A stretch of DNA of 32,000 nt from Nitrosospira multiformis ATCC 25196 (GTDB lineage: Bacteria; Pseudomonadota; Gammaproteobacteria; Burkholderiales; Nitrosomonadaceae), in contig NC_007614.1 of NCBI RefSeq assembly GCF_000196355.1, positions 1,020,001 through 1,052,000 of the forward strand. The letters run 5' to 3'. This document shows positions 7,026 through 27,658 of the stretch, piece by piece. The first letter of the stretch is position 1. Each line of letters opens with the position of its first letter. The notes beneath the pieces are model-generated. The model saw nothing but the letters and a program-made list of their open reading frames with translations. It had not been told where the DNA came from and ran no database searches. A program made the position numbers and the translations under genes.

Positions 7026-7166
7026 TCCCGTTTGCTTCCGTCCACAAGCACTTTGCTGATTTTGCGGGGAAAGTTGCTGGTCGAGGATTCACAAGGTCAG
7101 TTTAGTATATTCATGGAGACATGCAGGCTCGGCGGGCAGCAAGGATTCAGGCGCATCCGGTTACCC

Positions 7167-7195
7167 TTGACACGGCAAGGCGGTTCTCCTATAGC
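7167..7195 (+). promoter_or_regulatory. Sigma70-like promoter candidate for archease-rtcB
   Basis: TTGACA (7167-7172), a 17-nt spacer, then TATAGC (7190-7195). It lies in the divergent polX/archease intergenic region, about 150 nt upstream of the archease ATG. Confidence 0.4.
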
Positions 7196-7346
7196 TTGTA
7201 GTGTGCACTCCGGTTTTAGCGCCGTTTTAAGGCGATAAAAAGCAAGCGGGAGAGCGCAGACAGGAGGGCCAATGGAAAAGCAAAGGGGAAATTCTGGAGA
7301 GGCCGCCCGGGTTAGACTGAGTGATGGATCAAAGGATAATGTGTGC

Positions 7347-7763
7347 ATGCCAAGCCAGACTTCATCCTACTTCGAGCATGATGCGGACATCGGCATCATC
7401 GGACGTGGCGATACGCTGGAGCAGGCATTCGAGACAGCCGCTCAAGCAGTGTTCGGCATAGTCACGCCCCTGGATAAGGTGCAGCCGCAGACTTCGGTCA
7501 AGATAGAGTTCGAAGAATCAGATCACGAACTGGCGCTGGTGACATGGTTGAATCTGTTGCTGGGAAAGGCGCGTGAACTCGGCATGGTTTTCAGCCGCTT
7601 CCATGTGCAGCGCCGGGAAAACGTGTGGTCCACCGAAGCTCTCGGTGAAAAATGGCGCGAAGTAATGGAGCGTGGAGTAGAAGTCAAAGGTGCGACGCTG
7701 ACCATGCTTTCTGTCAAACAAACCGGAGCAATGTGGGAAGTGCGGTGCATAGTGGATGTGTGA
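7347..7763 (+). CDS. Archease (RtcB activator/chaperone)
   Basis: MPSQTSSYFEHDADIGIIGRGDTLEQAFETAAQAV...VKGATLTMLSV...VRCIVDV. The N-terminal FEHxADIG and C-terminal VKAxT...xxVDV signatures are those of archease. I prefer the internal ATG at 7347 over the track start at 7272. Confidence 0.85.
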   Translation: MPSQTSSYFEHDADIGIIGRGDTLEQAFETAAQAVFGIVTPLDKVQPQTSVKIEFEESDHELALVTWLNLLLGKARELGMVFSRFHVQRRENVWSTEALGEKWREVMERGVEVKGATLTMLSVKQTGAMWEVRCIVDV

Positions 7764-7802
7764 GATCATATAAATTGAACGATAGGAACGGCAGGAGGTG
7801 AC

Positions 7803-9230
7803 ATGAATCTGGAGCGCCTACGTCAACTGCAACCCTGCCTGTGGACATTGCCGCGCGCACCGGGCGAAGAACGCGCGCAGGTCCTCCTGTATGGCAGCGC
7901 GCCCTTGCTCGTCAGCATGGACGACAAGGTACTCGAGCAGATCGCCAACGTTGCTTCCCTGCCGGGGCTGGTTGGAGCGGCAATGACCATGCCGGATGCG
8001 CATTGGGGATATGGTTTTCCCATAGGGGGTGTTGCTGCTTTCGATGCTGAGCAGGGGGGGGTGATTTCCGCAGGCGGGGTCGGCTTCGATATTTCGTGCG
8101 GCATACGCTGTCTGCGCAGCAATCTGAATCTGGAGGATGCGGTAGAGCATTTTCCCCAGCTCGGAAAAGCCTTGTTCCGCGCTATCCCTGCTGGAGTGGG
8201 CGAGGAGGGCGAGATCAAGCTGAACCCGGAGCAGCTCGACCAGGTGATGCACGGCGGTGCACACTGGGCGGTACAGCAAGGCTACGGCACTCCAGCAGAT
8301 CTGGATTATGTTGAAGAACAGGGGCGGGTAGCAGGAGCGATCCCGGAAAACGTATCCGAACTTGCCAAAAAGCGCCAGCGCGGCGAGATGGGCACGCTCG
8401 GCTCAGGCAATCATTACCTGGAAGTACAGGTGGTGGACCGCATCTTCGATCCTGGCGTCGCGCTGGCGCTTGGCCTGCATGAAGGACAAATCCTGATTTC
8501 GATACATTGCGGTTCGCGTGGGCTGGGGCACCAGATCGGTACCGATTATCTGGTGCTATTGGCAAAAGCAGCCAGCCGCTCGGGCATTCATTTACCCGAT
8601 CGTGAACTCGCTTGCGCGCCTGTCAAATCCCCCGAAGGCCAGCAATATATCGGCGCGATGAATGCTGCGATCAATTGCGCGCTTGCCAACCGGCAAATCC
8701 TGACGCATCTTACGCGCTCCGTATTTACGGAAATTTATCCCCAGGCCGAGCTTGAAACCTTGTTTGATGTTTCGCACAATACCTGCAAGGCCGAAACCCA
8801 TCAGATCGACGGTGAATCGAGGTTGCTGTATGTGCACCGCAAGGGCGCTACACGCGCATTCGGCCCGGGCCACCCCATGCTGCCGGAACGCTACCGCCAG
8901 GTAGGACAACCCGTCGTTATCGGTGGAAGCATGGGAACAGGCTCCTACATTCTCGTTGGTGACAGCGAAAATCCCGCCTTCGCTTCTTCAAGCCACGGTG
9001 CAGGCCGGGCCATGAGCCGGCACCAGGCACTCGCGCGATGGAAAGGACGTGCGCTGGTGGACGAGTTGGCGCAACAAGGTATTCTGATCCATACCCGCTC
9101 CATGCGAGGTGTGGCGGAAGAAGCCCCGGGCGCCTATAAGGATGTCGATCTGGTGGCGGAGGCCACGGAAGAAGCCGGGCTCGCCCGGCGCGTCGCGTTT
9201 CTCCGACCCAAAGTCTGCGTTAAGGGTTAA
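7803..9230 (+). CDS. rtcB: RNA 3'-phosphate ligase RtcB (long, archaeal/eukaryal-like form)
   Basis: 475 aa carrying MPDAHWGYGFPIGGVAAF, GGVGFDISCG, GSGNHYLEVQ, HCGSRGLGHQ, SSSHGAGR and a C-terminal VCVKG. These are the RtcB metal-binding and His-GMP motifs. Confidence 0.95.
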   Translation: MNLERLRQLQPCLWTLPRAPGEERAQVLLYGSAPLLVSMDDKVLEQIANVASLPGLVGAAMTMPDAHWGYGFPIGGVAAFDAEQGGVISAGGVGFDISCGIRCLRSNLNLEDAVEHFPQLGKALFRAIPAGVGEEGEIKLNPEQLDQVMHGGAHWAVQQGYGTPADLDYVEEQGRVAGAIPENVSELAKKRQRGEMGTLGSGNHYLEVQVVDRIFDPGVALALGLHEGQILISIHCGSRGLGHQIGTDYLVLLAKAASRSGIHLPDRELACAPVKSPEGQQYIGAMNAAINCALANRQILTHLTRSVFTEIYPQAELETLFDVSHNTCKAETHQIDGESRLLYVHRKGATRAFGPGHPMLPERYRQVGQPVVIGGSMGTGSYILVGDSENPAFASSSHGAGRAMSRHQALARWKGRALVDELAQQGILIHTRSMRGVAEEAPGAYKDVDLVAEATEEAGLARRVAFLRPKVCVKG

Positions 9231-9246
9231 GGGTTGAGGATTAAGG
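9219..9246. repeat. Four tandem heptamers (GTTAAGG GTTAAGG GTTGAGG ATTAAGG) straddling the rtcB stop codon
   Basis: Read directly from the sequence. The TAA stop (9228-9230) lies inside unit 2. Confidence 0.8.
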
Positions 9247-9280
9247 AAGGGTGAACAAATTCCTGCCAGACGCGATGGAC

Positions 9281-9308
9281 TTGACCGGGGATTCCTCGGC
9301 AATATAAA
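9281..9308 (+). promoter_or_regulatory. Sigma70-like promoter candidate for the usp gene
   Basis: TTGACC (9281-9286), a 16-nt spacer, then TATAAA (9303-9308). It lies 22 nt upstream of the ATG at 9330. Confidence 0.4.
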
Positions 9309-9329
9309 AACTTTTTTCAAGGGAGTGAC

Positions 9330-9803
9330 ATGTATCAACGTATCCTGGTTCCAATAGACGGCAGCGCGACCTCCACTCTTGCACTCCAGGAAGTCTCGAA
9401 ACTTGCAAAGCAGCACAGCAGCCAGGTGGAACTGGTATATGTCATGGCTGATATTCATTTGATGGATGCCAACAGCTACATCAATTACGATGAAATGAAG
9501 GAATCCCTGGAGAGAACCGCCAGGAAGATATTGGCGGAGGCGCAAACATTGATGCAACAGGCAGGGGTTGCAGTCGAAGTGAAATTACTGGAAGCGGGTG
9601 GCGAGCGCATTGCCGGCGTAATACTCGAAGAAGCAAGGCGCTGGTCGGCCGAGTTGATCGTAATTGGCACACATGGGCGTTCCGGTTTCAGTCGCGTCCT
9701 GTTCGGGAGCGTCGCGGAAGGGATGGTGCGCATGGCACATATTCCCGTGCTGCTCATCCGCGGCGACAAAAGCCAGTTGCGTGAAAAGGAGCGCGCGACA
9801 TAG
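9330..9803 (+). CDS. Universal stress protein (UspA family)
   Basis: MYQRILVPIDGSATSTLALQEV...LIVIGTHGRSGFSRVLFGSVAEGMVRMAHIPVLLIR shows the classic Usp ATP-binding motif G-x2-G-x9-GS. Confidence 0.9.
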   Translation: MYQRILVPIDGSATSTLALQEVSKLAKQHSSQVELVYVMADIHLMDANSYINYDEMKESLERTARKILAEAQTLMQQAGVAVEVKLLEAGGERIAGVILEEARRWSAELIVIGTHGRSGFSRVLFGSVAEGMVRMAHIPVLLIRGDKSQLREKERAT

Positions 9804-9835
9804 TCCTGGCAGTTCTGGCGGAGGCTCCGGTCTTT

Positions 9836-9854
9836 CAGGCTTATCCTAAGCCTG
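9836..9854. other. Perfect 8-bp hairpin (CAGGCTTA-tcc-TAAGCCTG) between usp and the HPF gene
   Basis: Seen in the sequence. No U-tract follows, so it may be an attenuator, an operator or an RNA processing site rather than an intrinsic terminator. Confidence 0.3.
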
Positions 9855-9890
9855 GTGCAGTATGATTCTATCATCGAGAGGACATAAGTC

Positions 9891-10478
9891 ATGAAATTGC
9901 AACTTCAGATCACCACACGCGATATTCCCCATTCTGACGCACTGGAAAGCCATATTCGGCAAAAAGCGGAAAAGCTCGAGACTTTTTATCCCCAGATCAT
10001 GGGGTGCAGGATAGTCGTCGAGGTTCCTCACAAACACAAACACCAGGGCAACCTGTTCAATGTGCGGCTGGACATCACAGTGCCGGGAAAGGAGCTTGTG
10101 GTGACCCGTGAACCGAACGAGGATGTGTACGTTGCGCTGCGCGATGCATTCGACGCCGCAAAGCGTCAGCTCGAAGACTACGGACGGCGCCAGCGCGGTG
10201 AAGTCAAGGCGCATGCTCCCGTCCTGCATGGAAAGGTGGTACGGCTGATGCCGGAGGAAGGCTATGGTTTCGTCGAAACTTCGAGTGGACAGGAGTTGTA
10301 CTTTCATCGCGAAAATCTTGCCAACAATAACTTTGAGCAATTGGAAGAAGGAAGCGAGGTGCAGTTCCTCGAAGATATCGGCAGTGAAGGTTTTCAGGCA
10401 AAGCGCGTCAGTACAGGCAAGCGTCAGGTAGAAGAACCCGAAGAAGCAGAGCCGCGCTTGACAGGTTCGGCGGATTAG
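9891..10478 (+). CDS. HPF/RaiA-type ribosome hibernation domain fused to a C-terminal cold-shock (CSD/S1-like) domain
   Basis: The N-terminal ~100 aa, MKLQLQITTRDIPHSDALESHIRQKAEKLETFY...VYVALRDAFDAAKRQLEDY, match the S30EA/HPF fold pattern. The C-terminal HGKVVRLMPEEGYGFVETSSGQELYFHRENL...GSEVQFLEDIGSEGFQAKRV has the RNP1-like GYGF and YFHR motifs of cold-shock domains. Confidence 0.8.
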   Translation: MKLQLQITTRDIPHSDALESHIRQKAEKLETFYPQIMGCRIVVEVPHKHKHQGNLFNVRLDITVPGKELVVTREPNEDVYVALRDAFDAAKRQLEDYGRRQRGEVKAHAPVLHGKVVRLMPEEGYGFVETSSGQELYFHRENLANNNFEQLEEGSEVQFLEDIGSEGFQAKRVSTGKRQVEEPEEAEPRLTGSAD

Positions 10479-10551
10479 ACTAAGTCCGGCGCACTCAACC
10501 GAAGAATGTAAAGTGCAGGGAGCAAAGCGGCAAAGGGGATAGGAGATTGCC

Positions 10552-11133
10552 ATGAAAATGGACATAGGCACCGGTGATGCCCTTATCATAGTGGATGTGC
10601 AAAACGACTTTCTGCCCGGCGGAAGCCTTCCTGTACCGGCGGGAGATGAGGTCATCCCAAACCTTAACCGGTATATCGCAGCTTTTCTTTTTCGCGAATT
10701 ACCTATTTTCGCTACTCGCGACTGGCATCCGCCTGATCACTGCTCCTTTCATCAGCAAGGAGGGCCTTGGCCCGCGCACTGTATTGCCGGCACGCAGGGC
10801 GCGGCATTTCCGGCGAATCTTGAAATCCCCTGCGACACGCATATCATTTCCAAGGCCACCTCCAGGGAGAAAGATGCTTATTCCGGTTTTTCGGAAACAG
10901 AACTGGATGCCATGCTGAAATCCGCAGGAATTTCCCGTGTTTTCATCGGTGGCCTGGCTACGGATCATTGCGTTCTCAGTACCGTACGGGATGCCTTGAA
11001 CCAGGGGTATGACATCTTTGTTCTCAAGGATGCAGTACGGGGGCTGGATGCCGACGCAACCAGCGCCGCCCTAGAGGAAATGGCCCATCTGGGCGCAAAA
11101 CTCATCGATTTCGAAACCATTGTCCCTGCGTGA
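10552..11133 (+). CDS. pncA: Nicotinamidase / isochorismatase-family hydrolase
   Basis: ALIIVDVQNDFLPGGSLPV...ATRDWHPPDHCSF...GLATDHCV carries the catalytic Asp-Lys-Cys and metal-site pattern of PncA. Its stop overlaps the start of the next gene (GTGA at 11130-11133). Confidence 0.85.
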   Translation: MKMDIGTGDALIIVDVQNDFLPGGSLPVPAGDEVIPNLNRYIAAFLFRELPIFATRDWHPPDHCSFHQQGGPWPAHCIAGTQGAAFPANLEIPCDTHIISKATSREKDAYSGFSETELDAMLKSAGISRVFIGGLATDHCVLSTVRDALNQGYDIFVLKDAVRGLDADATSAALEEMAHLGAKLIDFETIVPA

Positions 11134-12503
11134 ACCCACTCTCCAGCCCGCTACTGACCGACCATTACCAGTTGACCATGCTGGAGAGCTACCTTCAGCA
11201 GGGAATGCAGGAAACTGCGGTTTTCGAGCTGTTTTTCCGCAAGCTTCCCCCGACCCGGAATTTTCTGGTGGCGGCGGGTCTGGAACAGGCGCTGGAATTC
11301 CTTGAGAACCTGCATTTTTCAGCGGGGGAGTTGACATGGCTCAAGGCCCGGTTTGGACCTGCTCTTGTAAATTACCTTGAACAATTCCGGTTTACCGGCG
11401 ATGTGGATGCAATGCCGGAAGGGACGCTTTTTTTTCCGGATGAGCCCATCCTTCGGATCACGGCGCCGCTGCCGCAAGCCCAGTTCGTTGAATCGCGTAT
11501 CATCAACCTGCTGCATTTCGAAACCCTGATCGCCTCAAAGGCAGCACGCTCAGTGCTGGTTGCGCCCGGCAAACTCCTGGTGGATTTCGGCATGCGCCGG
11601 GCACATGGAGCGGAAGCCGCGTTGCTTGCCGCCCGGGCAAGTTATCTTGCCGGTTTTTCCGGCACATCAACAGTACTTGCGGCGGCAATATATGGCATGC
11701 CTTCGTTCGGCACCGTTGCTCATTCCTACATTCAGGCCCATACAGACGAGACTGCCGCTTTCGAACATCTTGTGCGTTGCCATCCGAAAAACTCGACGCT
11801 GCTGATCGATACCTACGACACCGAGGCGGCTGCCATCAAGGTCGTCGCCCTGGCCCGCAAACTTGCACCGGAGGGCATCGAGGTAAGTGGCGTCCGGCTG
11901 GACAGCGGCGACTTGGGAATGCATGCCCGGCGCGTGCGCCGGATACTCGACGAGGGGAGACTCGAAAAAACCCGCATCTTTGCCAGCGGTAATCTGAACG
12001 AAAATCGGGTGCATGAACTGATTTCATCCGGCGCTCCCATTGACGGCTTTGGCGTGGGTACTGCATTAGACGTGTCGAGCGACGCTCCGGCGCTGGATTG
12101 CGCCTATAAGCTGCAGGAGTACGCCGGCAAGGCCCGCCGCAAACGCTCCGAGGGAAAAGCGACATGGCCGGGTCGGAAGCAGGTGTATCGCAAATATGAC
12201 CCGAATGGCCAAGCGATGCGCGATGTTATTGCACTGGAAAAGGATGATTCGCATGAGGGCGAGCCTTTAATTGTCCCTGTGATGCGGAATGGGCGGCGCA
12301 TTGAAGGGATCGACGGGAATGGGAAGCTGGAGGCCATCCGCCGGCGAACAGTGGCGAACTATGCCCGCCTGCCGGAACCCCTCCGATCGCTTGAAACGGC
12401 ATCCGCTTACCCGGTCGAAATCTCCCCCTCGCTGCAGGCTCTGGCAAAACAGGTGGATGACGAGTGCGGCCTCATTACCTCTACCCGGAACCTTTGCGTC
12501 TGA
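11130..12503 (+). CDS. pncB: Nicotinate phosphoribosyltransferase (about 450-aa class)
   Basis: 457 aa. The N-terminus is LLTDHYQLTMLESYLQQGM, followed by FGMRRAHG and GVRLDSGD, all characteristic of NAPRTase. It is translationally coupled to pncA. Confidence 0.85.
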   Translation: MNPLSSPLLTDHYQLTMLESYLQQGMQETAVFELFFRKLPPTRNFLVAAGLEQALEFLENLHFSAGELTWLKARFGPALVNYLEQFRFTGDVDAMPEGTLFFPDEPILRITAPLPQAQFVESRIINLLHFETLIASKAARSVLVAPGKLLVDFGMRRAHGAEAALLAARASYLAGFSGTSTVLAAAIYGMPSFGTVAHSYIQAHTDETAAFEHLVRCHPKNSTLLIDTYDTEAAAIKVVALARKLAPEGIEVSGVRLDSGDLGMHARRVRRILDEGRLEKTRIFASGNLNENRVHELISSGAPIDGFGVGTALDVSSDAPALDCAYKLQEYAGKARRKRSEGKATWPGRKQVYRKYDPNGQAMRDVIALEKDDSHEGEPLIVPVMRNGRRIEGIDGNGKLEAIRRRTVANYARLPEPLRSLETASAYPVEISPSLQALAKQVDDECGLITSTRNLCV

Positions 12504-12569: not shown

Positions 12570-13274
12570 TCATGCAACTGCCTCGTTGAGGGTGCCCGCC
12601 AGCAGGCTGCGTAACGCACGCCACCGCCAGCCGCCCTTGAGAATATGCTTCTGGTTGACCTCCAGTTCGATGCCGACGTAAGCATTGACAGGAAATCGGC
12701 GGCGCAGGTAGGTGGGGAAACCGTTTGCCGATCCGGTGTAGGGATAGTTGCGGCGTACCCTTAAATCGGGCATGTGGGCGGCAAGGCACACTCGCCAGCG
12801 GGTGCACAGTTCTTGCTCAAGATGGCGTGAGGGATCATAAAGCAGTCCGATATCGGTATTGCGAACTTCCCCCTTCAATTCGGGAGTGAAGCTGTGTGAG
12901 GAGATGTGGATTACCCTCAGGCCGGAGCGAATGGCATCCGCGATGTTCGCTTCCACCCAAGTGCGATAAGGCAAGTAGTGGTTCTTCAGAATCTCCTGGC
13001 GGACGGCGGCAGATGTGTTGCGCGTCGCTTCCGAATAAAGGCGGGGGTGACCGATCGAGCGGTTGAGGTCGATCAGCAGACGGCTTGTTGTAGCGGCGAA
13101 CAATGGCGAGTGCAGTGCCATGGCAAGTTTTTTAGCCAAGCCCAAAGCGCCGCTGTCATAGCCCCGGTGGCTGTGCAACAAATGCTCGTAGCCTTCGAAC
13201 AGCGGACGGTAGCGCGGTGGCATGCGGTTACCCCCATGTTCACAACTGATTAAAAAATGAATATTCGTCGGCAT
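12570..13274 (-). CDS. N-formylglutamate amidohydrolase (FGase) family protein
   Basis: 234 aa. FLISCEHGGNRMP...HSHRGYDSGA...IHISSHSFTP...GLLYDP...RNYPYTG shows the FGase-fold metal and substrate motifs (CEHxG, H..D, SxHSF). Confidence 0.8.
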   Translation of the reverse strand: MPTNIHFLISCEHGGNRMPPRYRPLFEGYEHLLHSHRGYDSGALGLAKKLAMALHSPLFAATTSRLLIDLNRSIGHPRLYSEATRNTSAAVRQEILKNHYLPYRTWVEANIADAIRSGLRVIHISSHSFTPELKGEVRNTDIGLLYDPSRHLEQELCTRWRVCLAAHMPDLRVRRNYPYTGSANGFPTYLRRRFPVNAYVGIELEVNQKHILKGGWRWRALRSLLAGTLNEAVA

Positions 13275-13304
13275 TCTGTTGAAGTCATATGCAACTCGTT
13301 CAAT

Positions 13305-14543
13305 TCATTTCAGAAACATGCGATTTTCGTCCAGACAATCGCACAGCTCGCGGTAGACCGTCTCCAACCGTCTCCTGCTGAAGTCGGAACCGATCGCATT
13401 CAGGATGCGGCGCGCAAGCGAGCCCTCTCTTAAAATGGTTTGCAGCGCTTCTCGGCAGCTTTTTCCTTGCCTGGATTCGACTGGCATCTCAGACTCGACA
13501 AGATGTCGCCACAGAACGCCAGCCGTGCAATCCGTACCCGGAAAACCCATCAGGCGAAGGTATGCCACATTATCGATTACGGCTTGCTCTGCGTCACGGA
13601 TGCAGGCATGCATGATCCTGACCAATGCTTCCGTGGCGATGGATTGCTGCGCGACCAGCGACGCGTAAGCTTCGCTATAGAGCGCATGCACGATATTGAT
13701 CGCAGCAGCGGCGATGGCAAAGTCAGCACTCGAGCATTCCTGGGTATCGATTACGCGGATCTCGATAGCGTTACGGTCAAAGCGGGGAATTTCCCCGCGC
13801 GCATTGAGCCACTCATGCTGTAGCATTTCTTCCGGATCGAGTGCTGCAATTTCGCGGTACATCGGCGCCAGAATCTTTTCTTCATAGGCGGCGGCACTGG
13901 AGACTGTTTCCGGGATTACCCGGCCGATGGTCGAGGGTACCTTCAGCTGGTGCTCGCAGTAATTTGCCATCCGGAAATCCAGGCAACCAGAATAGCTGCC
14001 TTCGGCGATCGGGGAGCTTGCCGCTACTGCTGGAAGAATGGGCAGCAGCAGCCGCACCGCGGCGTGAAGCCGCGCAAATTCATCGTCGTTTGCGAAAGGC
14101 ATGTTCAGGTGCATGCTTTGCAGGTTGGCCCAGCCATGTCTTCTGCAATCGAAGATATGGTCATAGGCCAGATAGATTTCCGCCTGCTCGTGCGGCCAAA
14201 GGCGGGTCTCCGTGCGGGGATTCATCCAGGGGTGCATGCCGGTCGGCATGAGCCGTGCATTCATCGATTCGAGCACCTTGCTGATCCGCCGGATTTCGCC
14301 TTGAAACGCGACAGACAGGGAGGAAATGTCCGGTTGCGGGTCGATGTTTTTCAGTTCGAGCAGATGCAGCACCAGCTCGTTCGACCATCCCAACTGGCCG
14401 TTCCCGGCCTCGGATGCAAACGCGCCGGTAAGCTTTCGCAGCAACTCGTCGGCAATAGGAACAATCGCGAGCGTATTCCGGTCGACAATCATGTACTCCA
14501 GTTCGATGCCATAACCTGTAAAGGCCGGCAATGCCGCAGTCAT
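13305..14543 (-). CDS. GCS2 / YbdK-like carboxylate-amine ligase (glutamate-cysteine ligase family 2)
   Basis: 412 aa. GYGIELEYMIVD...SNELVLHLLELKN...MHPW...MHLNMPF...IEIRVIDTQEC is the beta-grasp and ATP-site pattern of GCS2 / glutamine-synthetase-like amidoligases. Its start overlaps the upstream peptidase stop (ATGA, 14540-14543). Confidence 0.8.
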   Translation of the reverse strand: MTAALPAFTGYGIELEYMIVDRNTLAIVPIADELLRKLTGAFASEAGNGQLGWSNELVLHLLELKNIDPQPDISSLSVAFQGEIRRISKVLESMNARLMPTGMHPWMNPRTETRLWPHEQAEIYLAYDHIFDCRRHGWANLQSMHLNMPFANDDEFARLHAAVRLLLPILPAVAASSPIAEGSYSGCLDFRMANYCEHQLKVPSTIGRVIPETVSSAAAYEEKILAPMYREIAALDPEEMLQHEWLNARGEIPRFDRNAIEIRVIDTQECSSADFAIAAAAINIVHALYSEAYASLVAQQSIATEALVRIMHACIRDAEQAVIDNVAYLRLMGFPGTDCTAGVLWRHLVESEMPVESRQGKSCREALQTILREGSLARRILNAIGSDFSRRRLETVYRELCDCLDENRMFLK

Positions 14544-15280
14544 GTTGCCTTATCCGGCTCGTCTCGTGTTCGGATGACGAGCAGATTGGCATCATGCGTC
14601 ACGATGCCCAGCAGCACGGAGCACAATACCCGGTCGATGTTGCTCCAGTACTCCTGGGCCGGGCCGTATGGATCGGCGACAAGAACTGTACGCTTCTCGC
14701 GGTCATAACCGGTGAGTACGACAAAATGCCCGGCTGGAAAACCACGCACATCATCCGGTATGTCATTTGGCCCGTATTCCCGGGGAGCGCGGTAAAGGAA
14801 AGTGGAGCTCAGGCCAGTCAGGACAGGCAGGCCGCGACGTAAAAGGCCGTGGATGAGGGATTGCGAGAGGTCTGTGAGACGTAATCGTCCGCCTAAACGC
14901 AGAAACTCCAAATAACCCTCCGTGGCCCGTCGCAATCTCGAGTCCGACTTGATCTCGCGTTGCCGTTGCAGGCGTTCCGCGATATCCATCCCTGATGTGA
15001 ACCAGGTTGGATCGAAAACCATCAGGTTGTACGTATAGATGGTGGCATGGAAACCGTTTCGCAACGCATCGCAACCTAAAAAAACGGCAAAGGTTCCTCC
15101 ACCGTTTTCAAGCTTGTGGGTGCGGTCAATGATGGTGTCCAGCAGTTCCGCCTTGCCGAGATAGCTGTAGATGGCATGCAGGCACGTTGGACCACATGTC
15201 GTTTCATCGGGTTGCGGCAGTGTTTTGACGGGTAAGCGCAGTGTTGTTCTGAGCATGGCAAATGGGCGGCAGAGGCACAT
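14540..15280 (-). CDS. Papain-fold cysteine peptidase, C39-like (possibly DUF3335/RimB-like)
   Basis: LPQPDETTCGPTCLHAIYSYLG supplies the Gln oxyanion residue and catalytic Cys spacing of C39-like peptidases. GHFVVLTGYD...VADP supplies the His and Asp. The start may instead be the internal ATG at 15256 (MLRTT...). Confidence 0.65.
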   Translation of the reverse strand: MCLCRPFAMLRTTLRLPVKTLPQPDETTCGPTCLHAIYSYLGKAELLDTIIDRTHKLENGGGTFAVFLGCDALRNGFHATIYTYNLMVFDPTWFTSGMDIAERLQRQREIKSDSRLRRATEGYLEFLRLGGRLRLTDLSQSLIHGLLRRGLPVLTGLSSTFLYRAPREYGPNDIPDDVRGFPAGHFVVLTGYDREKRTVLVADPYGPAQEYWSNIDRVLCSVLLGIVTHDANLLVIRTRDEPDKAT

Positions 15281-15597
15281 GTCATGACAGCTTCGCTGTA
15301 GCTAAAGAACATGGGGAACATAGGAGCATGGGGATCCGCCATGGGGCTGTTCCCGGGCCGGCCTTGTTCGAAGTCCCTCTATAAAGGTTAGGTGATGCGC
15401 TGGAAGAAATCCAGTTCGTGGAGCATGCTCATCAAATGCTCTCTCTACTGGGGGAGAGGAATGGTGAGAGGATGGCAGTCGAAGAATCGAACGCTTTTCA
15501 GCGCAGATTTGTCGAAACCTCGGTTTCCAGTCAGGGGACCTACCCTGGCAGAAGGCACCAATCTGGCGCCGATCTCAATCTCTCCGCGCCTAGTCTT

Positions 15598-15672
15598 TTA
15601 GGCAAGCCAGACGCCAGCGAGATAACCGGAACAGACGGCAGAGCCGATAATAAGAAGATGGCCTTCAGCCAT
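15598..15672 (-). CDS. Candidate 24-aa hydrophobic micro-ORF (MAEGHLLIIGSAVCSGYLAGVWLA)
   Basis: Hand translation. It begins 43 nt downstream of the methyltransferase stop and upstream of the peptidase operon. The SD is only weak (AAGG, 4 nt upstream). It could be a chance ORF. Confidence 0.15.
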   Translation of the reverse strand: MAEGHLLIIGSAVCSGYLAGVWLA

Positions 15673-15714
15673 TTTGCCTTGCCACTTCTTCCGAGAACCT
15701 CGCTTGCCTATCAG

Positions 15715-18366
15715 TCAGGCGGCTGCCGCCTCCTTCTGGACCCAGAACAGATACATGGTATTGAACGTGTCAGGGTTCTCGGTTTCGAATATGTGCCAGC
15801 GGTCGAGATCGGTTTGAGGAACATCCTCCGGAAAGCGCCGCCGATACTGATTAACCGTGCTTTGCCCAATCGAAAATCCGAGGAATATCAAACCAAGCTC
15901 CCGAAGATCTTCCTTGATGTGGGGAAGAGTATAACGATGCTCCTGGACATGGAATAGCATGTCGCGACACTCGCTCAAAGTATAGAAATCCCGTGCGGAT
16001 AAAACCTGACGAAATGTGTCTCCATTTTCTGGCGACATCATCTCCTGGCGACACGTCCTGATGTCTTCGGCAATGGGCTTGTATCCTCTTTGAGCAATAA
16101 AACGTTGGGCAAAAGCCAGGTGCGACCGTGCGTACTCGCTATACAGGCCGATACGCATGAAGCCGCCAGGCCGGAGCAAGGAAAGCAGCTTACGCCACCC
16201 GAGGAGAGGGTCGGAAAGATGGTGTAGAACGCCAACTGCTTCGATCACGTCGAAGAGTTTGCTACCTCTCGCCGCTATGCTCTCAGAATCGAGGTTCAGG
16301 ATGTCTGCCTGCGCGTATTCGATATTCCGTACGCACAACTCATCAGTCTTCCTTTTGGCATAACAGAGCGATCTTGAACTAAGATCGACAGCAAGAACAT
16401 TCGCATTCTTGAATCGCTGCGCGGCGGCAATGGCATGCCGGCCGGTTCCGCATCCCGCGACCAGAACCTCGATCGCGTCTTTGACACTTTCATTCCGATG
16501 TCCACGACTGGCAGACGATTCAAATCGCGCATAAGGGAAGCGGCTACTCAGGTAGCGGTCCACTAATTCGCTACCGGGCCGTAACGGAACCTTGATCCAT
16601 CTCGGATAAGGATTCTCTTCATACTGATTACGCACACGGCATGAAGTATCGTCTACGATGGCTGTCAGGGAAGGAAGGTGGGACAGATTCCGCTCTTCCT
16701 TCAGCGGCTCTTGCACCTGTTGCAAGAGCAGTGCTGCTATCGGGTCAGGCCAGGAATGGTCGAGAAGTCGTTCAGCAAATGGCAACGAACGGAGCGGAAA
16801 ATAAGCAGCCGCCGCTGCAAGCGATAGCGGGTGGATGGTTCCGTTGGCTTGCAGTGCGGCGGTGACTTGTTCCTTCAACTTCAGCGCCTGCTCATATTCC
16901 TCTGCCGAATATGCGAAAACATATTCGTTGATGAAGCATTGCCGCGCCAGTGCGCACCAAAATAAATCCCCTTCCTCCTGCCACTCCCGGCCATCTCCTC
17001 GTACCTTGCCGGCCCCATTTTCTTCGGCTATGGCTATTTGCAGAAGGCAATAGCGCAGCGAGGTCAAAAACTGTTCAAGTTCAACATCGCAAACAGGAGT
17101 ATTTTCCATCAAAGCCCGCAGCAGCTCATTATTGAACACTGCAGCAAAGCCGGCTTTGCTTGATTCAGATTTATCAAAAAGCTTCTGGCACGACATCCCG
17201 CCAGCCTGCGCTGTCTTCATCCCGTCGAGATGCCCACGTATGGCACAGTCTCTCTTGATCAGCGAAACAGCGGGGTTTCCAAAATCGTCTGGCTGGCCCC
17301 ATGTTTCGGATATGGCTCGAACAAGGAGAGAATGAAGGCGAGGTATGTCATGATCGCAGTAAAAATTCGCGATGCAATCTGTAAAATTCCTCTTTATATC
17401 GGAGTCATCGCAAAGTTCAAGTGCATCCCAGTAATCGATTACGGCATTGTCAGCCTTATGCTGTTGCCACAGCACATATGCACGATTGCTATAGGCCCGC
17501 GCATATCCAGGGTTCAGCTCAATAGCCCGGCCATAAGCAACTGCTGCTTCATCCAATCTCCCCAGCTCACGCAGCGCGTTTCCCAGATTGTTGAATGCCT
17601 CCGGAAACTGCGGCTTGTACAGGATGGCCTTTCCAAAACTTGATACTGCCTCTTCAAATTTACCTTGTTCCACGAGGACATTTCCCAGATTGTTGAATGC
17701 CTCTGCAGAATCCGGCTTTAACAGGAGTGCCTTGCGGAAGCTTGATACGGCATTTTCGAGATCCCCCTGCTCTCTATGGACGATGCCGATATTACAGTGC
17801 ATCTCCGCAAGCTGAGGCTGGATGCCGAGAGCCTTTCGATAATTGATCATCGCGTCATCCAGCCTGCCTTGCTCCCTGAGGGCGTTTCCAAGATTGCCAT
17901 AGGCCTCGGCAAAACGAGGCTCAAGTTTCACGGCAGTCCGGTAAGAGGCGATTGCATCATTCAATTTTCCTTGTTGTCTGAGCGTGTTACCAAGGTTGTT
18001 ATGTGCCTCCACGTAGTTGGGCTTGAACCTCAAGGCTCTCTTGATGAGTTCGATACCGATATCGATCCTGCCTGCATCCCGAGCCAGGAGGCCCAGGAAA
18101 TGCAGTGCATCGGGATGATTCGGATCAAGCTGAAGTATGTGTTGATAAATTGCTTCCGCTTGGGACAAATTTCCCCTCTTGTGATGCTCGACAGCGGCTT
18201 GAAGGTACTGCAGGATGGATTGTCGCGGAGACGTGTCGGCGAGTGAGGCTGCCGGGTTCGCTTCCGCGTTCCTTTCGCAGCAGTGCTTGTATTTCTTTCC
18301 GCTTCCACACGGGCATGGTTCATTCCGTCCAATCTTTTTCATGCTTTCAAGTTTTAAGCCAGTCAA
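15715..18366 (-). CDS. SEC-C motif / TPR-repeat / class I SAM-dependent methyltransferase multidomain protein
   Basis: 883 aa. The N-terminus has GRNEPCPCGSGKKYKHCC, a SEC-C zinc knuckle. About eight TPR units follow, with repeated A..Y...L...P....A..NLGN. The C-terminus has VLVAGCGTGRHAIAAA...VLAVDLS...FDVIEAVGVLHHL...LRPGGFM, which are MTase motifs I, II and post-I. Confidence 0.8.
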   Translation of the reverse strand: MTGLKLESMKKIGRNEPCPCGSGKKYKHCCERNAEANPAASLADTSPRQSILQYLQAAVEHHKRGNLSQAEAIYQHILQLDPNHPDALHFLGLLARDAGRIDIGIELIKRALRFKPNYVEAHNNLGNTLRQQGKLNDAIASYRTAVKLEPRFAEAYGNLGNALREQGRLDDAMINYRKALGIQPQLAEMHCNIGIVHREQGDLENAVSSFRKALLLKPDSAEAFNNLGNVLVEQGKFEEAVSSFGKAILYKPQFPEAFNNLGNALRELGRLDEAAVAYGRAIELNPGYARAYSNRAYVLWQQHKADNAVIDYWDALELCDDSDIKRNFTDCIANFYCDHDIPRLHSLLVRAISETWGQPDDFGNPAVSLIKRDCAIRGHLDGMKTAQAGGMSCQKLFDKSESSKAGFAAVFNNELLRALMENTPVCDVELEQFLTSLRYCLLQIAIAEENGAGKVRGDGREWQEEGDLFWCALARQCFINEYVFAYSAEEYEQALKLKEQVTAALQANGTIHPLSLAAAAAYFPLRSLPFAERLLDHSWPDPIAALLLQQVQEPLKEERNLSHLPSLTAIVDDTSCRVRNQYEENPYPRWIKVPLRPGSELVDRYLSSRFPYARFESSASRGHRNESVKDAIEVLVAGCGTGRHAIAAAQRFKNANVLAVDLSSRSLCYAKRKTDELCVRNIEYAQADILNLDSESIAARGSKLFDVIEAVGVLHHLSDPLLGWRKLLSLLRPGGFMRIGLYSEYARSHLAFAQRFIAQRGYKPIAEDIRTCRQEMMSPENGDTFRQVLSARDFYTLSECRDMLFHVQEHRYTLPHIKEDLRELGLIFLGFSIGQSTVNQYRRRFPEDVPQTDLDRWHIFETENPDTFNTMYLFWVQKEAAAA

Positions 18367-18447
18367 GCTTTAGCATCCTGTCCCTGCCCCGAAGCGGCGC
18401 GAACAAGAGCAACGAAAGTTGCCTGATTTGTTGAAACAGCAGTTGGA

Positions 18448-20121
18448 TCATCTTCCATCCAGCAACCGCTCCAGTTTCTTCCAGGCATTATCGCCGCTGT
18501 CAAAGCCTTCTTTCTCGTTGACGAACTCTACGGTGTAAGCCCGCTCCTGCGGCGCCAGCACTTCCTCTTTTTCCTGTAACAGTTTCAATACGCCCAGATC
18601 AGCCTCGGAGGCATCGCTTGATTCGCTTTGCCGTTTTACGATACGGCTTTGCATTGTCTCGGAGGACGCTTTCAGCGATGCAATCACAAACGGCACCGAC
18701 AGTTCATCTGCCAGCATTCGGAAATGCTCGCGCTCTTCCCGTTTCAGAAAGGCGGCATCCACGATTACCGGAAAGCCTGCGGCCAGCAGTTCTCGGGCCA
18801 GATCATGCAGTCGCGCATACGTTCGCACCGTAGCCTCCGCATGATAAATGCCCTCCGCCTGCGAGCGGCTGTCTGCCAACGCCGCCAATCCGAATAAACG
18901 CTTGCGCTCCACGTCCGATCGTATGCGTATGGCTTGCAGCCTTTCCAGTGCTGCCTGTGCAAAAGTCGTTTTGCCCGATCCCGGCAAACCCCGGGTAATC
19001 ACCAGGGCGGGCCGCTGCCGGGCAAGGCATGCTCTGGCGAGATCAAGAAAACTGCTGCAGGATGCCAGCGCGGCTGCCTTGTCCCGTTTGGAGAGGTTAT
19101 CCTGGCCGGCGCGAACGGCGCTGACCATGGCACGCACTGCGGCGCGATAGGCGAGATAGAAACGCAGCAAGGGCAGGCCCCCATAATCACCCGTAGTTTC
19201 CAGATAGGCATTGAGGAAGCGATAGGCAAGCTCAGACTGCTGGCGATGCAGCAGGTCCATGACGGTAAAGGCGGCTTCGTTCATTACATCGATCCAGCGT
19301 AGCGAGGGACTGAACTCGATACAATCGAAGGGAACGGGTCGTCCGCGAATCAGCGCAATATTACCCAGATGCAGGTCGCCATGACATTCGCGCACAAAAC
19401 CCCCGGCAAGCCGCCGTTCCAGATGCTCCTTGCGTACGCCATACTCAGTCTCGATCGCCGCGCGCAATCCAGCCACACGGACTTCATTTTCAGTGCCAGC
19501 CAGCGCAGTTTGTAGTTGCTCGAGAGTCTGAAATACTGTCGCATGTGTCGCAGCGGCTGACCCAAGCCCGGCCCCAGGCTCGGCCGAGGGCAGAGCCTCA
19601 TGAAAATGCGCGATCGTTGCCGCCAGGCTATCCATATGCTCCGGGAGAATCCTGTCGTGCTCGGCCAGCCTGTCCAGTTGTTGGGAAGCAGGGAAGCGGC
19701 GCATTTTTACTGCATATTCGATAGCCGGTTCAGCACCGATTTCCGGCATTTCAGCCGTGCCGCCGAGGGGAATGACATCCAGATAGAGTTGGGGTGCAAG
19801 ACGCCGGTTGAGCCGCAGCTCTTCCTCACAATAATGGCGGCGTGATGACAGATCGGTAAAGTCGAGGAAACCCAGGTCGACCGGTTTCTTTATTTTGTAG
19901 GCATAGCGTCCCGCCAGCAGTACCCATGAAATGTGGGTTTCCATTATTCCTACCCGTTTTACCGGGTGGGGATAGCAGCGAGGATCCAGCAAGGCAGTGA
20001 TTAATCTGCCTTGAACATCTCCATCCGCCTGCGGGGAATCAGACGGCTTCTTCGCTTGGGTGATTGAATCTTTCATGACCATGATCGATAACCTGGCCGG
20101 CAGGTTGAGGGTAACGCCCAA
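18448..20121 (-). CDS. Bifunctional APH-like (aminoglycoside phosphotransferase fold) kinase plus P-loop (AAA_33-like) kinase protein
   Basis: 557 aa. The central HGDLHLGNIAL is the Brenner/APH catalytic loop. The C-terminal ITRGLPGSGKTTFA is a Walker A motif. The start is uncertain, with an alternative ATG at 20082 (MVMKDS...). Confidence 0.75.
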   Translation of the reverse strand: MGVTLNLPARLSIMVMKDSITQAKKPSDSPQADGDVQGRLITALLDPRCYPHPVKRVGIMETHISWVLLAGRYAYKIKKPVDLGFLDFTDLSSRRHYCEEELRLNRRLAPQLYLDVIPLGGTAEMPEIGAEPAIEYAVKMRRFPASQQLDRLAEHDRILPEHMDSLAATIAHFHEALPSAEPGAGLGSAAATHATVFQTLEQLQTALAGTENEVRVAGLRAAIETEYGVRKEHLERRLAGGFVRECHGDLHLGNIALIRGRPVPFDCIEFSPSLRWIDVMNEAAFTVMDLLHRQQSELAYRFLNAYLETTGDYGGLPLLRFYLAYRAAVRAMVSAVRAGQDNLSKRDKAAALASCSSFLDLARACLARQRPALVITRGLPGSGKTTFAQAALERLQAIRIRSDVERKRLFGLAALADSRSQAEGIYHAEATVRTYARLHDLARELLAAGFPVIVDAAFLKREEREHFRMLADELSVPFVIASLKASSETMQSRIVKRQSESSDASEADLGVLKLLQEKEEVLAPQERAYTVEFVNEKEGFDSGDNAWKKLERLLDGR

Positions 20122-20136
20122 TATTAACCAGACGCA

Positions 20137-21090
20137 TTAGCCAAACTGCTCTGCGAAGCGGGCAAGAAAGGTATCGAGCGCGCTTTCGGGCAAATTGTTG
20201 ATCCCGGCCGCCGCCTTGCGTCCTCCCCCTGTTTCAAACTTCATGCAGAGCACGTCGGCACCCTGGGGATTCGCCAACGGCGCCCGCACACTGACCTTAT
20301 AGCCACCCGCCCGGTCGATCGTAATGACTGCATGCGCGCATGCCGGATTGTCGTTCGCAAGCTTGTTGGCAAAAACACCGCTTACCCGTCTTGCCCATGC
20401 CGCATCCGGAAGGAGATAGGCAGCGTGATGCGCGTGCTGGAGCAGGGGGCGCAACGATGCCGTCATCCGGGTATCCTCCAGAAATCCCGCTGCAAGCTCC
20501 TTGAAGGCAGCCGATTCGGCGATAAAATCGAATGGATCGGGGTAGGGCGCCATTGCCTCATATAATGCAAGAGGATGAAAATGCAGGTCTTCCAGGGTCT
20601 CGCCGTAGCTGTTGTAATTAAGGCATTCCCCCAGGTGTGCGAGCTTCTCTATCTGCGGTTGGACCAGTCCATTCTGTAGCGCAAGTCTACTGGCGCTTTC
20701 GCTGATGTTATCCCCAAAGGCTGCGGCAATCCCCCAGGAACGGTATTTTCCTTCCAGATGGCGGTCGACCAGCAGGCTTGTGCATACCCCCGCAGATGTA
20801 TCGATGTGAGTGCTCAAATGGGGATGGACGGGTATCTCCCCGGCATAGTGATGGTCGAAATACTCGACAGCCACGCCGGTCTCCAGCAGTTGCACGAGGG
20901 CAGCACGGTTGCTGTTCAGGGAGATGTCGAGCACTGTCACCCGTTCGCCTGCGTGGGCCTTGACCCGCTCGAGCAGGCGGATATCGCGCTTTAATCCTGT
21001 CACTAATTCTGTCCGAACAGGATTGCTCAGCAGAAGCTGATGGACGGCACAAAGACCGTCTGCATCTCCGTTAAAAACGTGATAATTCAT
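20137..21090 (-). CDS. DHH-family phosphoesterase-like protein
   Basis: 317 aa. The N-terminal FNGDADGLCA and later VEYFDHHY match DHH motifs I-III. It ends 15 nt before the kinase ORF. Confidence 0.65.
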   Translation of the reverse strand: MNYHVFNGDADGLCAVHQLLLSNPVRTELVTGLKRDIRLLERVKAHAGERVTVLDISLNSNRAALVQLLETGVAVEYFDHHYAGEIPVHPHLSTHIDTSAGVCTSLLVDRHLEGKYRSWGIAAAFGDNISESASRLALQNGLVQPQIEKLAHLGECLNYNSYGETLEDLHFHPLALYEAMAPYPDPFDFIAESAAFKELAAGFLEDTRMTASLRPLLQHAHHAAYLLPDAAWARRVSGVFANKLANDNPACAHAVITIDRAGGYKVSVRAPLANPQGADVLCMKFETGGGRKAAAGINNLPESALDTFLARFAEQFG

Positions 21091-23715: not shown

Positions 23716-23911
23716 CAAAAAGTATCGCGAAAATAAGCTGCGCCACGTTCACAGACTGACTGCCTGCGCCCGTCATTTGTAGTTCATCCGGGCGTATTGA
23801 AAATTCCTGCTTCGATTACTTTGGGCTATAAAAGATTTAAATTGCCAAGTTTGCATATATTAGACGCCAGATGGCTTGCTTTCTTCTCGATATCGCTTTA
23901 TCATCATCTTT

Positions 23912-24370
23912 ATGACTTCTTTTATCTCACCAGCGGCCCGGAAGCCGTTTTCCGCCTCGAACATTCTAGGCGGCAAGCAGATACTCCACACCGATCCACG
24001 TTCGGCAGTCGAGTGGATAGAACTCGTGCGCAGAGGCATTCCCGCCCCGGCGATCGACGCAGTCCTGGGGCTCGTTGACCTGCGGCAGGGTGAACTCTCC
24101 CGCGCGCTGGATATTCCGGAGCGCACGCTGGTGCGACGAAAAAAGGAAGGAGTGCTCAACTGCGAGGAATCCGGCAAATTGCTGCGCCTGGCGCGGGTTG
24201 TTGAACGTGCCGGCGAGGTGTTTGAGGACGGATCCCTGGCGCTGGACTGGATCAAGTCACCCAACGCCAGCCTGGGCGGCGCCACCCCCCTGTCCATGCT
24301 GGATACTGATCTTGGCGCCGATTCAGTGATGACTATTCTTGGTCGGATCGAGCACGGTATTTTCACTTGA
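23912..24370 (+). CDS. Xre/ParS/MbcA-type antitoxin (DUF2384 toxin-binding domain)
   Basis: ...LSRALDIPERTLVRRKKEG.LN.EESGKLLRLARVVERAGEVFED...ALDWIKSPNASLGGATPLSMLDTDLGADSVMTILGRIEHGIF is the canonical DUF2384 C-terminus. Its stop overlaps the start of the RES gene (TTGA). I prefer the ATG at 23912. Confidence 0.85.
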   Translation: MTSFISPAARKPFSASNILGGKQILHTDPRSAVEWIELVRRGIPAPAIDAVLGLVDLRQGELSRALDIPERTLVRRKKEGVLNCEESGKLLRLARVVERAGEVFEDGSLALDWIKSPNASLGGATPLSMLDTDLGADSVMTILGRIEHGIFT

Positions 24371-24846
24371 AGTTGACGGTGTGGCGTATCGTCACACACC
24401 GCTTCGCCGCTTCTGCATTTTCCGGCGAGGGTGCGCGGCTGTTCGGCGGCCGCTGGAATCTCAAGGGCGAGCCGGTAGTGTACACGGCGCAGAGCAGGTC
24501 ACTCGCCTTTCTCGAAATGCTCGTCCAGGACGAGCCGCTGCGCGCCAATTATCTCCTGATCCCCGCGGAAATTCCTGGCGATATCCCCAGACTGGAAATC
24601 GATGCCGGACAGCTCCCGGAGAACTGGCGAACTCTCGAGAGCCGTAAAAACCTCGAGGAAATCGGCAGCCGGTGGCTGCGTGATGCCAGATACTGCGTAA
24701 TGGATGTTCCCAGCGTTGTAATTCCCGCTGAGCGAAACCTGCTGCTCAACCCGGCACACCCCGATTTTCGCAGAATCCGGATAGGTCAACCGGAAAACCT
24801 CAAGAGCGATCTGCGGCTACTGCGGAATCTATCCGCAGCAAAGTGA
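24367..24846 (+). CDS. RES-domain toxin (NAD+-targeting ParT/MbcT-like)
   Basis: VWRIV...FSGEGARLFGGRWNLKGEPVVYTAQSRSLAFLEMLV supplies the R...E...S residues of the RES domain. The start is a TTG overlapping the antitoxin stop. Confidence 0.85.
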   Translation: MKLTVWRIVTHRFAASAFSGEGARLFGGRWNLKGEPVVYTAQSRSLAFLEMLVQDEPLRANYLLIPAEIPGDIPRLEIDAGQLPENWRTLESRKNLEEIGSRWLRDARYCVMDVPSVVIPAERNLLLNPAHPDFRRIRIGQPENLKSDLRLLRNLSAAK

Positions 24847-24997: not shown

Positions 24998-25270
24998 CTA
25001 TGGCGATATCGTGCCGAACAGGGTTCCATCCGGCGCGGTGACGCGGATTTCCGCGCGTTTGGGAAGCACGCGCGTACGTACTTCAACCCGGACCTTTTCA
25101 TTGCCGGAAACCGGGCGCGGAAGCGTGAGTTCGATCACGCCCTGTGGCACCTCGATCTGCGCAAAAGCGCCATTTCCCAGTATGGACGAGAATCCCAGTA
25201 TGGACGAGAATATCAGAACGGCAATTACCGTGGCGAAGCGTAGCTGCCATCTGCATTTCGCGGCAGTCAA
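24998..25270 (-). CDS. Small secreted protein of unknown function, translationally coupled to tyrosinase
   Basis: 90 aa. The TTG start overlaps the tyrosinase TGA (TTGA). The signal peptide is convincing: K/R-rich n-region, hydrophobic core and an AFA-Q cleavage site. The mature part is beta-rich (IEVPQGVIELTLPRPVSGNEKVRVEVRTRVL...). I recognise no family. Confidence 0.55.
   Translation of the reverse strand: MTAAKCRWQLRFATVIAVLIFSSILGFSSILGNGAFAQIEVPQGVIELTLPRPVSGNEKVRVEVRTRVLPKRAEIRVTAPDGTLFGTISP
25186..25221. repeat. Perfect 18-bp tandem duplication (CCCAGTATGGACGAGAAT x2)
   Basis: Read directly from the sequence. It is in frame and duplicates FSSILG within the signal-peptide core of the small secreted protein. 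Confidence 0.95.
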
Positions 25271-27564: not shown

Positions 27565-27658
27565 GTTCACATTCAGGGGCCTCATACTGATATATAAGAG
27601 ATGGGCTGGTAATGCGTGCGTTACCCCTGTTTTGTACCAGCACTTAACTGGAACAAAT

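Follow-up and report, generated by a model that had tools for sequence, protein, structure and literature searches.

The stretch of DNA analysed here (hereafter the window) comprises 32,000 nucleotides of Nitrosospira multiformis ATCC 25196 (contig NC_007614.1, positions 1,020,001 to 1,052,000) and contains, between window positions 12570 and 21090, six co-directional genes on the minus strand. From the 5' end of that strand, their predicted products are a DHH/DHHA1 phosphoesterase of 317 aa (20137–21090), a bifunctional kinase with an APH-like phosphotransferase and an AAA_33 P-loop domain (18448–20076; Pfam E values of 6.8e-8 and 6e-36), a protein combining SEC-C (3.6e-10), many TPRs, a domain of unknown type and a class I methyltransferase domain (about 1e-16; 15715–18342), a papain-fold, Peptidase_C39_2-like cysteine peptidase (14540–15256; PF13529, E 1.1e-11), a GCS2-family ATP-dependent carboxylate-amine ligase (13305–14543; PF04107, E 2.8e-20, 73.3 bits against a cutoff of 21) and an FGase-family, N-formylglutamate amidohydrolase-like enzyme (12570–13274; PF05013, E 9.6e-22). 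An earlier note on this DNA had listed the same six open reading frames (ORFs) with fold-level domain assignments; all six were found again, and every assignment was matched by a Pfam profile. The note had joined the six genes into one functional toolkit for reversible protein or peptide modification. We propose instead, with a probability of roughly 80%, that the region is a mosaic in which four units, separable in evolution, are neighbours in Nitrosospira alone: the peptidase, GCS2 and FGase genes (unit A), which represent a reduced, RimK-less operon, the methyltransferase insertion (unit B), the kinase gene (unit C) and the DHH gene (unit D).

The spacing of the genes depends on where they start. 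The longest ORFs probably begin too far 5' for the kinase (ORF to 20121; likely start at 20076, MKDS...) and the methyltransferase (ORF to 18366; likely start at 18342, MKKIGRNEPC...), as judged from database homologues, and for the peptidase (ORF to 15280; likely start at 15256, MLRTTL...), as judged from the alignment of strains. With the corrected starts, the gaps are 60 bp between DHH and kinase, 105 bp between kinase and methyltransferase and 458 bp between methyltransferase and peptidase, while the peptidase stop and the GCS2 start overlap by 4 bp in an ATGA (14540–14543) that the earlier note had reported and that is present in the sequence; GCS2 and FGase lie 30 bp apart. Close coupling is therefore confined to peptidase, GCS2 and FGase, and the tight spacing described for the whole run does not hold for the other genes once their starts are corrected. 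A run of six co-directional genes is, by itself, statistically unremarkable.

The search for GCS2 homologues returned thousands of sequences. For the comparison of gene neighbourhoods we used 80 species-level loci around GCS2 homologues with 48–93% identity, from Beta- and Gammaproteobacteria and from Bacteroidota, which were searched by tblastn with all window proteins and with the Sulfuricella RimK; the counts given here are restricted to 45 loci whose flanks reach 7 kb or more upstream and 5 kb or more downstream. A C39-like peptidase lies near GCS2 in 44/45 loci, an FGase in 42/45 and a gene with RLAN and RimK domains (RLAN/RimK) in 39/45, and the canonical order of peptidase, RLAN/RimK, GCS2 and FGase is found within 5 kb in 35 of the 45. 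This order occurs in the neighbourhoods of Nitrosomonas communis, Sulfuricella and Thiobacillus, with frequent overlaps of 1–4 nt between neighbours, and the operon GCS2 proteins of Nitrosomonas, Thiobacillus and Sulfuricella share 59–67% identity with that of the window, while an N. multiformis database entry shares 99%. The ATP-grasp gene of these relatives encodes about 490 aa with RLAN (PF14401) and RimK domains and sits between peptidase and GCS2. It is missing from the window and so was invisible to the earlier note. The kinase is near GCS2 in 14/45 loci (5 Nitrosospira-type and 9 Thiobacillus-like), the DHH gene in 5/45, exclusively from Nitrosospira and Nitrosovibrio, and the methyltransferase in 1/45. 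Neither DHH nor kinase accompanies the operon in Nitrosomonas, Sulfuricella, Noviherbaspirillum, Chromatiales or Bacteroidota. ORF clustering of the loci gave no further family in more than 17 of them, the remaining neighbours being lineage-specific, and a fifth conserved gene or an encoded substrate was sought near the operon and not found; a gene for an NMD3-like Zn-ribbon protein occurs in 14 of 81 sequences (the 80 loci and the window). Reduced forms of the operon were also seen elsewhere. Nitrosomonas communis-type loci (L009, L014 and L059, also L010, L012 and L013) carry peptidase, RimK and GCS2 but no FGase, which is the reciprocal of the RimK-less reduction in Nitrosospira, and one locus from Bacteroidota (L078) has GCS2 and FGase alone.

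In Nitrosospira, RimK gave no tblastn match in the 32-kb window or within ±10 kb in seven Nitrosospira-type loci (N. multiformis Nl18, Nl7 and Nl12, a metagenome-assembled genome, Nv6, Nsp14 and N. briensis). The RimK-less loci form one clade in the GCS2 tree, sister to RimK-containing Nitrosomonas, which points to a single loss of the gene. Because the lengths of the three remaining proteins are unchanged, no fusion makes up for the missing RimK. The three ORFs are intact and free of stop codons in all seven Nitrosospira-type genomes, and the overlap of peptidase stop and GCS2 start is kept in N. multiformis and N. briensis. Their dN/dS values (0.08–0.15 for the peptidase, 0.21–0.23 for GCS2 and 0.16–0.20 for FGase; 0.06–0.23 overall) compare with 0.10–0.22 for pncB. 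Positions that are invariant in RimK-containing loci are retained at 65 sites in the peptidase, 83 in GCS2 and 46 in FGase; for the peptidase the set consists of 73 homologues, from 66 RimK-containing and 7 Nitrosospira-type loci, and its invariant residues include the cysteine of ETTCGPTC and the histidine of GHFVV. FGase shows one consistent lineage-specific change (D→N184). On the evidence of these sequence comparisons, the three-gene module is under purifying selection and not decaying. The peptidase is predicted to be a cytoplasmic, papain-fold enzyme of the cysteine type. A sequence search of the PDB matched FGase to 2odf (Atu2144) at 1e-15 and gave nothing close for GCS2, peptidase, DHH or kinase; the GCS2 profile matched plant glutamate-cysteine ligase structures weakly (E 6e-4), and the AlphaFold2 (AF2) model of GCS2 was poor (pLDDT 54).

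Upstream of the peptidase gene, strain alignment and blastn boundaries delimit an intergenic segment (15257–15490) that is common to all four compared N. multiformis strains, whether or not the insertion described below is present, and that is probably the promoter region of the predicted three-gene operon. A promoter scan was uninformative (4 sites found against 6.1 expected). Just within this common segment, some 190 bp 5' of the peptidase start, lies an imperfect inverted repeat (~15439–15460, minus strand), which may terminate the upstream gene or serve as a binding site for a protein. The same repeat is perfect in strain Nl18 (L004, ~9090–9115; CCCTCTCCCC/GGGGAGAGGG) and degenerate in the window.

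The methyltransferase gene lies inside a strain-specific indel of 2.9 kb (15491–18388). In blastn comparisons with strains Nl18 and Nl12, homology ends at 18389/18395 and restarts at 15490, and the segment takes the place of 98 bp in Nl18 or 51 bp in Nl12. Among the N. multiformis strains compared, only the window strain and Nl7 carry it, and the gene is absent from the loci of N. briensis, Nsp14 and Nv6. The insertion has a GC fraction of 0.52 against 0.56 for the region and includes about 224 bp of 3' flank beyond the methyltransferase gene; neither a target-site duplication nor a transposase was found at its junctions. The C-terminal 553 aa of the methyltransferase protein have 3,236 representatives at E ≤ 1e-30, and this family is always C-terminal, in proteins with variable N-termini. 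Judged from these alignments, unit B is a recent insertion carrying a gene of a large independent family, and the gene's presence in only 1/45 loci counts against its place in the toolkit of the earlier note. At 43 nt past its stop codon, a consensus scan placed a terminator-like hairpin (15658–15672, minus strand; ATGGCTGAAGGCCAT) followed by a T-rich tail; the hairpin is positional evidence only, since such sites are not above the counts in shuffled sequence (12 found, 8.8 expected). A 24-aa ORF (15598–15672) was considered as a precursor peptide and rejected, as it is part of the strain-specific insertion and shares sequence with the hairpin. An anti-phage defence role was also rejected: PADLOC gave no match for five of the six proteins, and the methyltransferase protein matched generic domains only (MTase, SEC-C and TPR).

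The kinase gene is found in several contexts. In Nitrosospira it precedes the module, whereas in Thiobacillus it follows FGase and a DksA-type gene; in Sideroxydans it sits among NMD3-like, S30AE, Lon and Usp genes, and in locus L090 next to pilus and secretin genes. In the last three it occurs without DHH. The functionally unrelated pncB is near the module in 13/45 loci, compared with 14/45 for the kinase, and these are mostly the same loci, so that regional synteny suffices to explain the position of the kinase. We attribute its adjacency to synteny of the region across this bacterial order and not to a shared pathway. We also noted a stand-alone paralogue of the APH-like N-terminal domain of the kinase, 351 aa long and without a Pfam match, upstream of the module in locus L084 (3584–4639, minus strand); equivalents are present in the Thiobacillus-like loci L044, L047, L055 and L072, which have the full APH and AAA_33 kinase downstream as well.

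The DHH protein gave a weak Pfam match to DHHA1 (E 5e-4), and DxD, DHH and GGG motifs are visible in its sequence. Its AF2 model (pLDDT 92.5) has as its best fold match in the PDB the 3'-phosphoadenosine 5'-phosphate (PAP) phosphatase 8a8k from Methanothermococcus thermolithotrophicus (MtPAPP; E 7e-14, TM score 0.72–0.73), which ranks above RecJ, NrnA and phosphodiesterases. Both proteins have a two-domain DHH/DHHA1 fold and almost the same length (317 against about 316 aa), and the invariant D9, D11, D55, D79-H80-H81 and D127 correspond to the Asp and His metal ligands described for MtPAPP (PMC10322725). They differ in that sequence identity is only 13% and in that the window copy adjoins a kinase gene and not cys genes. 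MtPAPP, for which the biochemistry has been described, was found through its adjacency to sulfate-activation genes (PMC10322725). In three Nitrosomonas genomes of effectively one lineage, orthologues of the DHH protein with 63–65% identity directly follow cysD-cysN/C, with no kinase or ligase module nearby, whereas in the window and in other Nitrosospira the DHH gene is not beside them. The products of cysD and cysN/C make 3'-phosphoadenosine 5'-phosphosulfate (PAPS), and PAP is a by-product of PAPS-dependent sulfur metabolism. The DHH gene has a dN/dS of 0.11–0.14. Taken together, fold and residues suggest that the DHH protein is probably a PAP phosphatase of the MtPAPP type. This would give an enzyme type described as archaeal bacterial counterparts in ammonia oxidisers, and it would place the DHH gene in PAP hydrolysis and sulfate activation, an unrelated pathway.

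These neighbourhoods bear directly on how the six genes are to be read together. That all of them serve as a single toolkit for the reversible modification of proteins or peptides, on a TPR scaffold, was suggested by their adjacency and common direction and by domains that span both writer and eraser chemistries, but we now consider it very improbable. Every part occurs without the others: the module lacks the other genes in most lineages, and locus L091, from a close relative, has DHH and kinase together with pncB, pncA, S30AE fused to a cold-shock domain (S30AE+CSD), Usp, RtcB, archease and PolX, as in the window, but no peptidase, GCS2 or FGase. The DHH gene accompanies the module in no more than the five Nitrosospira-type loci, the methyltransferase sits in a mapped indel, and the halves upstream and downstream of the 458-bp gap, which holds the terminator-like hairpin, are co-located only in Nitrosospira and Nitrosovibrio. 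The toolkit thus fails on the restriction of this co-location to the genus and on the probable assignment of DHH to an unrelated pathway; the amide-mark chemistry proposed with it is reasonable for the peptidase, GCS2 and FGase operon and not for all six genes. A narrower version, in which DHH and kinase were recruited to the three-gene module after the loss of RimK, with the kinase for example replacing ATP-grasp activation, is favoured by a gene order (DHH, kinase, peptidase, GCS2, FGase) that N. multiformis, N. briensis, Nsp14 and Nv6 have in common, by purifying selection on all five genes and by the fact that the kinase also neighbours the module in Thiobacillus-like genomes. We give this version little credence, because L091 has DHH and kinase straight beside pncB, because orthologues of both genes stand alone in other contexts, because pncB shares the co-location pattern of the kinase, and because, by established enzymology, ATP-grasp ligation is not among the reactions of APH or P-loop kinases.

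For the module itself, the strongest competing account is that the RLAN/RimK gene has been relocated within the Nitrosospira chromosome and that the module is complete in trans. Purifying selection and intact invariant residues are the pattern expected of a running pathway, and we regard relocation as unlikely but as deserving more weight than the other alternatives; it is opposed by the lack of RimK in the window and around the seven loci, and by the tolerance of reduced modules elsewhere, as in the FGase-less Nitrosomonas communis-type loci. At the other extreme, the three genes could be a functionless, decaying relic of ATP-grasp loss, given that the missing member is otherwise near-universal (39/45 loci). 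This is scarcely credible in view of the intact ORFs in all seven genomes, the dN/dS values comparable to pncB, the retained invariant positions and the preserved ATGA translational coupling. Several points also weigh against the mosaic of four units. The absence of RimK covers the window and the ±10 kb loci, not the rest of the genome, and the adjacency of cysD-cysN/C and DHH was seen in three Nitrosomonas genomes so closely related that they effectively amount to one lineage. In two lineages, and in two arrangements, only a few kb separate the kinase from the module, which, together with the upstream APH-like paralogue, could reflect a weak functional coupling beyond synteny. DHH and kinase are a conserved pair, 27–120 bp apart in Nitrosospira-type genomes, and C and D may therefore count as a single unit there. 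A literature search found no experimental or descriptive paper on the operon, whose chemistry is predicted. On balance we retain the mosaic, and with it the plausible but wrong six-gene toolkit need not be carried forward.

GCS2 enzymes form amide bonds via an acyl-phosphate intermediate, and enzymes of the FGase family and of the papain fold hydrolyse amides. RimK-type ATP-grasp enzymes add C-terminal glutamates or build poly-alpha-glutamate (PMC10375531, PMC4741518). Considering these chemistries together, the ancestral operon is best read as a putative cytoplasmic builder and trimmer of a glutamyl-type peptide or protein modification. We propose the following hypothetical scheme, in which (i) GCS2 would use ATP to form an amide bond, probably of the glutamyl type, on a peptide, a protein terminus or a small amine; (ii) the RimK-like ATP-grasp enzyme of the ancestral module would add or extend residues; (iii) trimming or removal of the product would fall to the cysteine peptidase and to the FGase-type enzyme. 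The ancestor of Nitrosospira would have lost the ATP-grasp gene by clean excision while the remaining three genes stayed functional, and Nitrosospira would run the module without the ATP-grasp step unless a RimK gene resides elsewhere in the genome. A more specific proposal, that the operon writes and trims a glutamyl-type amide mark on a stress or ribosome-hibernation protein and that Nitrosospira is a natural experiment in which GCS2, alone or with the recruited kinase, suffices after ATP-grasp loss, seems to us improbable; it draws on S30AE, Usp, HSP20, DnaJ-like or YqjD-like genes near the operon in several lineages.

Computational work by Iyer, Abhiman, Burroughs and Aravind (Mol Biosyst 2009) reportedly predicted neighbourhoods with an RLAN/RimK-like ATP-grasp protein, a GCS2 amidoligase and a peptidase, and the Pfam RLAN domain (PF14401) is said to have been defined from that work. 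The module shares peptidase, GCS2 and FGase with their operon, in the order and with the tight coupling seen in 35–44 of the 45 loci, but the defining RLAN and RimK gene is absent from the window and the Nitrosospira-type loci. The operon is thus known computationally, with no experimental function found, and its three-gene form in Nitrosospira is a new reduced variant. In the RimK/RimB system for polyglutamylation of RpsF (S6) in Pseudomonas and E. coli, an ATP-dependent ligase is likewise encoded beside a trimming or regulating protease (PMC4741518, PMC11957791, PMC10092738), and the ancestral module also has a RimK-family ATP-grasp enzyme. However, the protease is papain-like in the module and a retropepsin in RimK/RimB, and the module adds a GCS2 ligase, an FGase and the RLAN domain, with RimK itself missing from the window. 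Comparison with YbdK/GshA and glutathione synthesis rests on the shared GCS2 family (PF04107) and on the pairing of GCS2 and ATP-grasp, which mirrors the two-step logic of GshA and GshB; the two dedicated hydrolases of the module have no counterpart there. That the window GCS2 is a YbdK or GshA orthologue was ruled out, as it falls far short of the cutoffs of the corresponding NCBIfam equivalog models (51.3 bits against 371 for NF010039 and 46.1 against 176.4 for TIGR02050). We consider this very widespread, experimentally uncharacterised four-gene ligase/peptidase operon to be the part of the region worth study. Its naturally reduced forms, without RimK in Nitrosospira and without FGase in Nitrosomonas communis-type genomes, reveal dispensable components and can guide biochemistry.

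The surroundings of the six genes include, at 5223–12503, genes for PolX, archease, RtcB, Usp, S30AE+CSD, PncA and PncB, a group of stress and repair type that is syntenic across Nitrosospira. The S30AE+CSD gene (9891–10478, plus strand) encodes a Ribosomal_S30AE hibernation-factor domain fused to a cold-shock domain; it stands beside pncA in N. briensis and L091 and is also near the module in Sulfuricella. A longer antisense ORF (9846–10655, minus strand) gave no family match and is probably spurious. In Sulfuricella, Thiobacillus and Sideroxydans, S30AE, Usp, HSP20, LonC-like and NMD3-like Zn-ribbon genes are found close to either the module or the kinase, and neighbourhoods of this stress and repair type were seen in L085, L091, L002, L084 and L089. 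Judged by sequence inspection alone, the genes upstream of the module resemble YqjD/ElaB in Noviherbaspirillum and DnaJ in Nitrosomonas. The stress-gene neighbourhood is a loose theme and not a conserved linkage. No Rfam families and no tRNAs were found in the window. On the other side of the six genes, an overlapping toxin-antitoxin pair (23876–24846, plus strand) consists of an Xre/MbcA/ParS-type antitoxin (23876–24370) and a RES-domain toxin (24367–24846). The segment 27000–32000 has a GC fraction of 0.45–0.49 against about 0.56, encodes a PIN_12 protein (27632–28624) and a tyrosine integrase (29002–30225), and is probably the edge of an integrated element. Between these features lies a gene for a tyrosinase with a twin-arginine translocation (TAT) signal (25267–26967, minus strand), whose orthologous region in N. 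briensis continues with a small ORF and then a multicopper oxidase.

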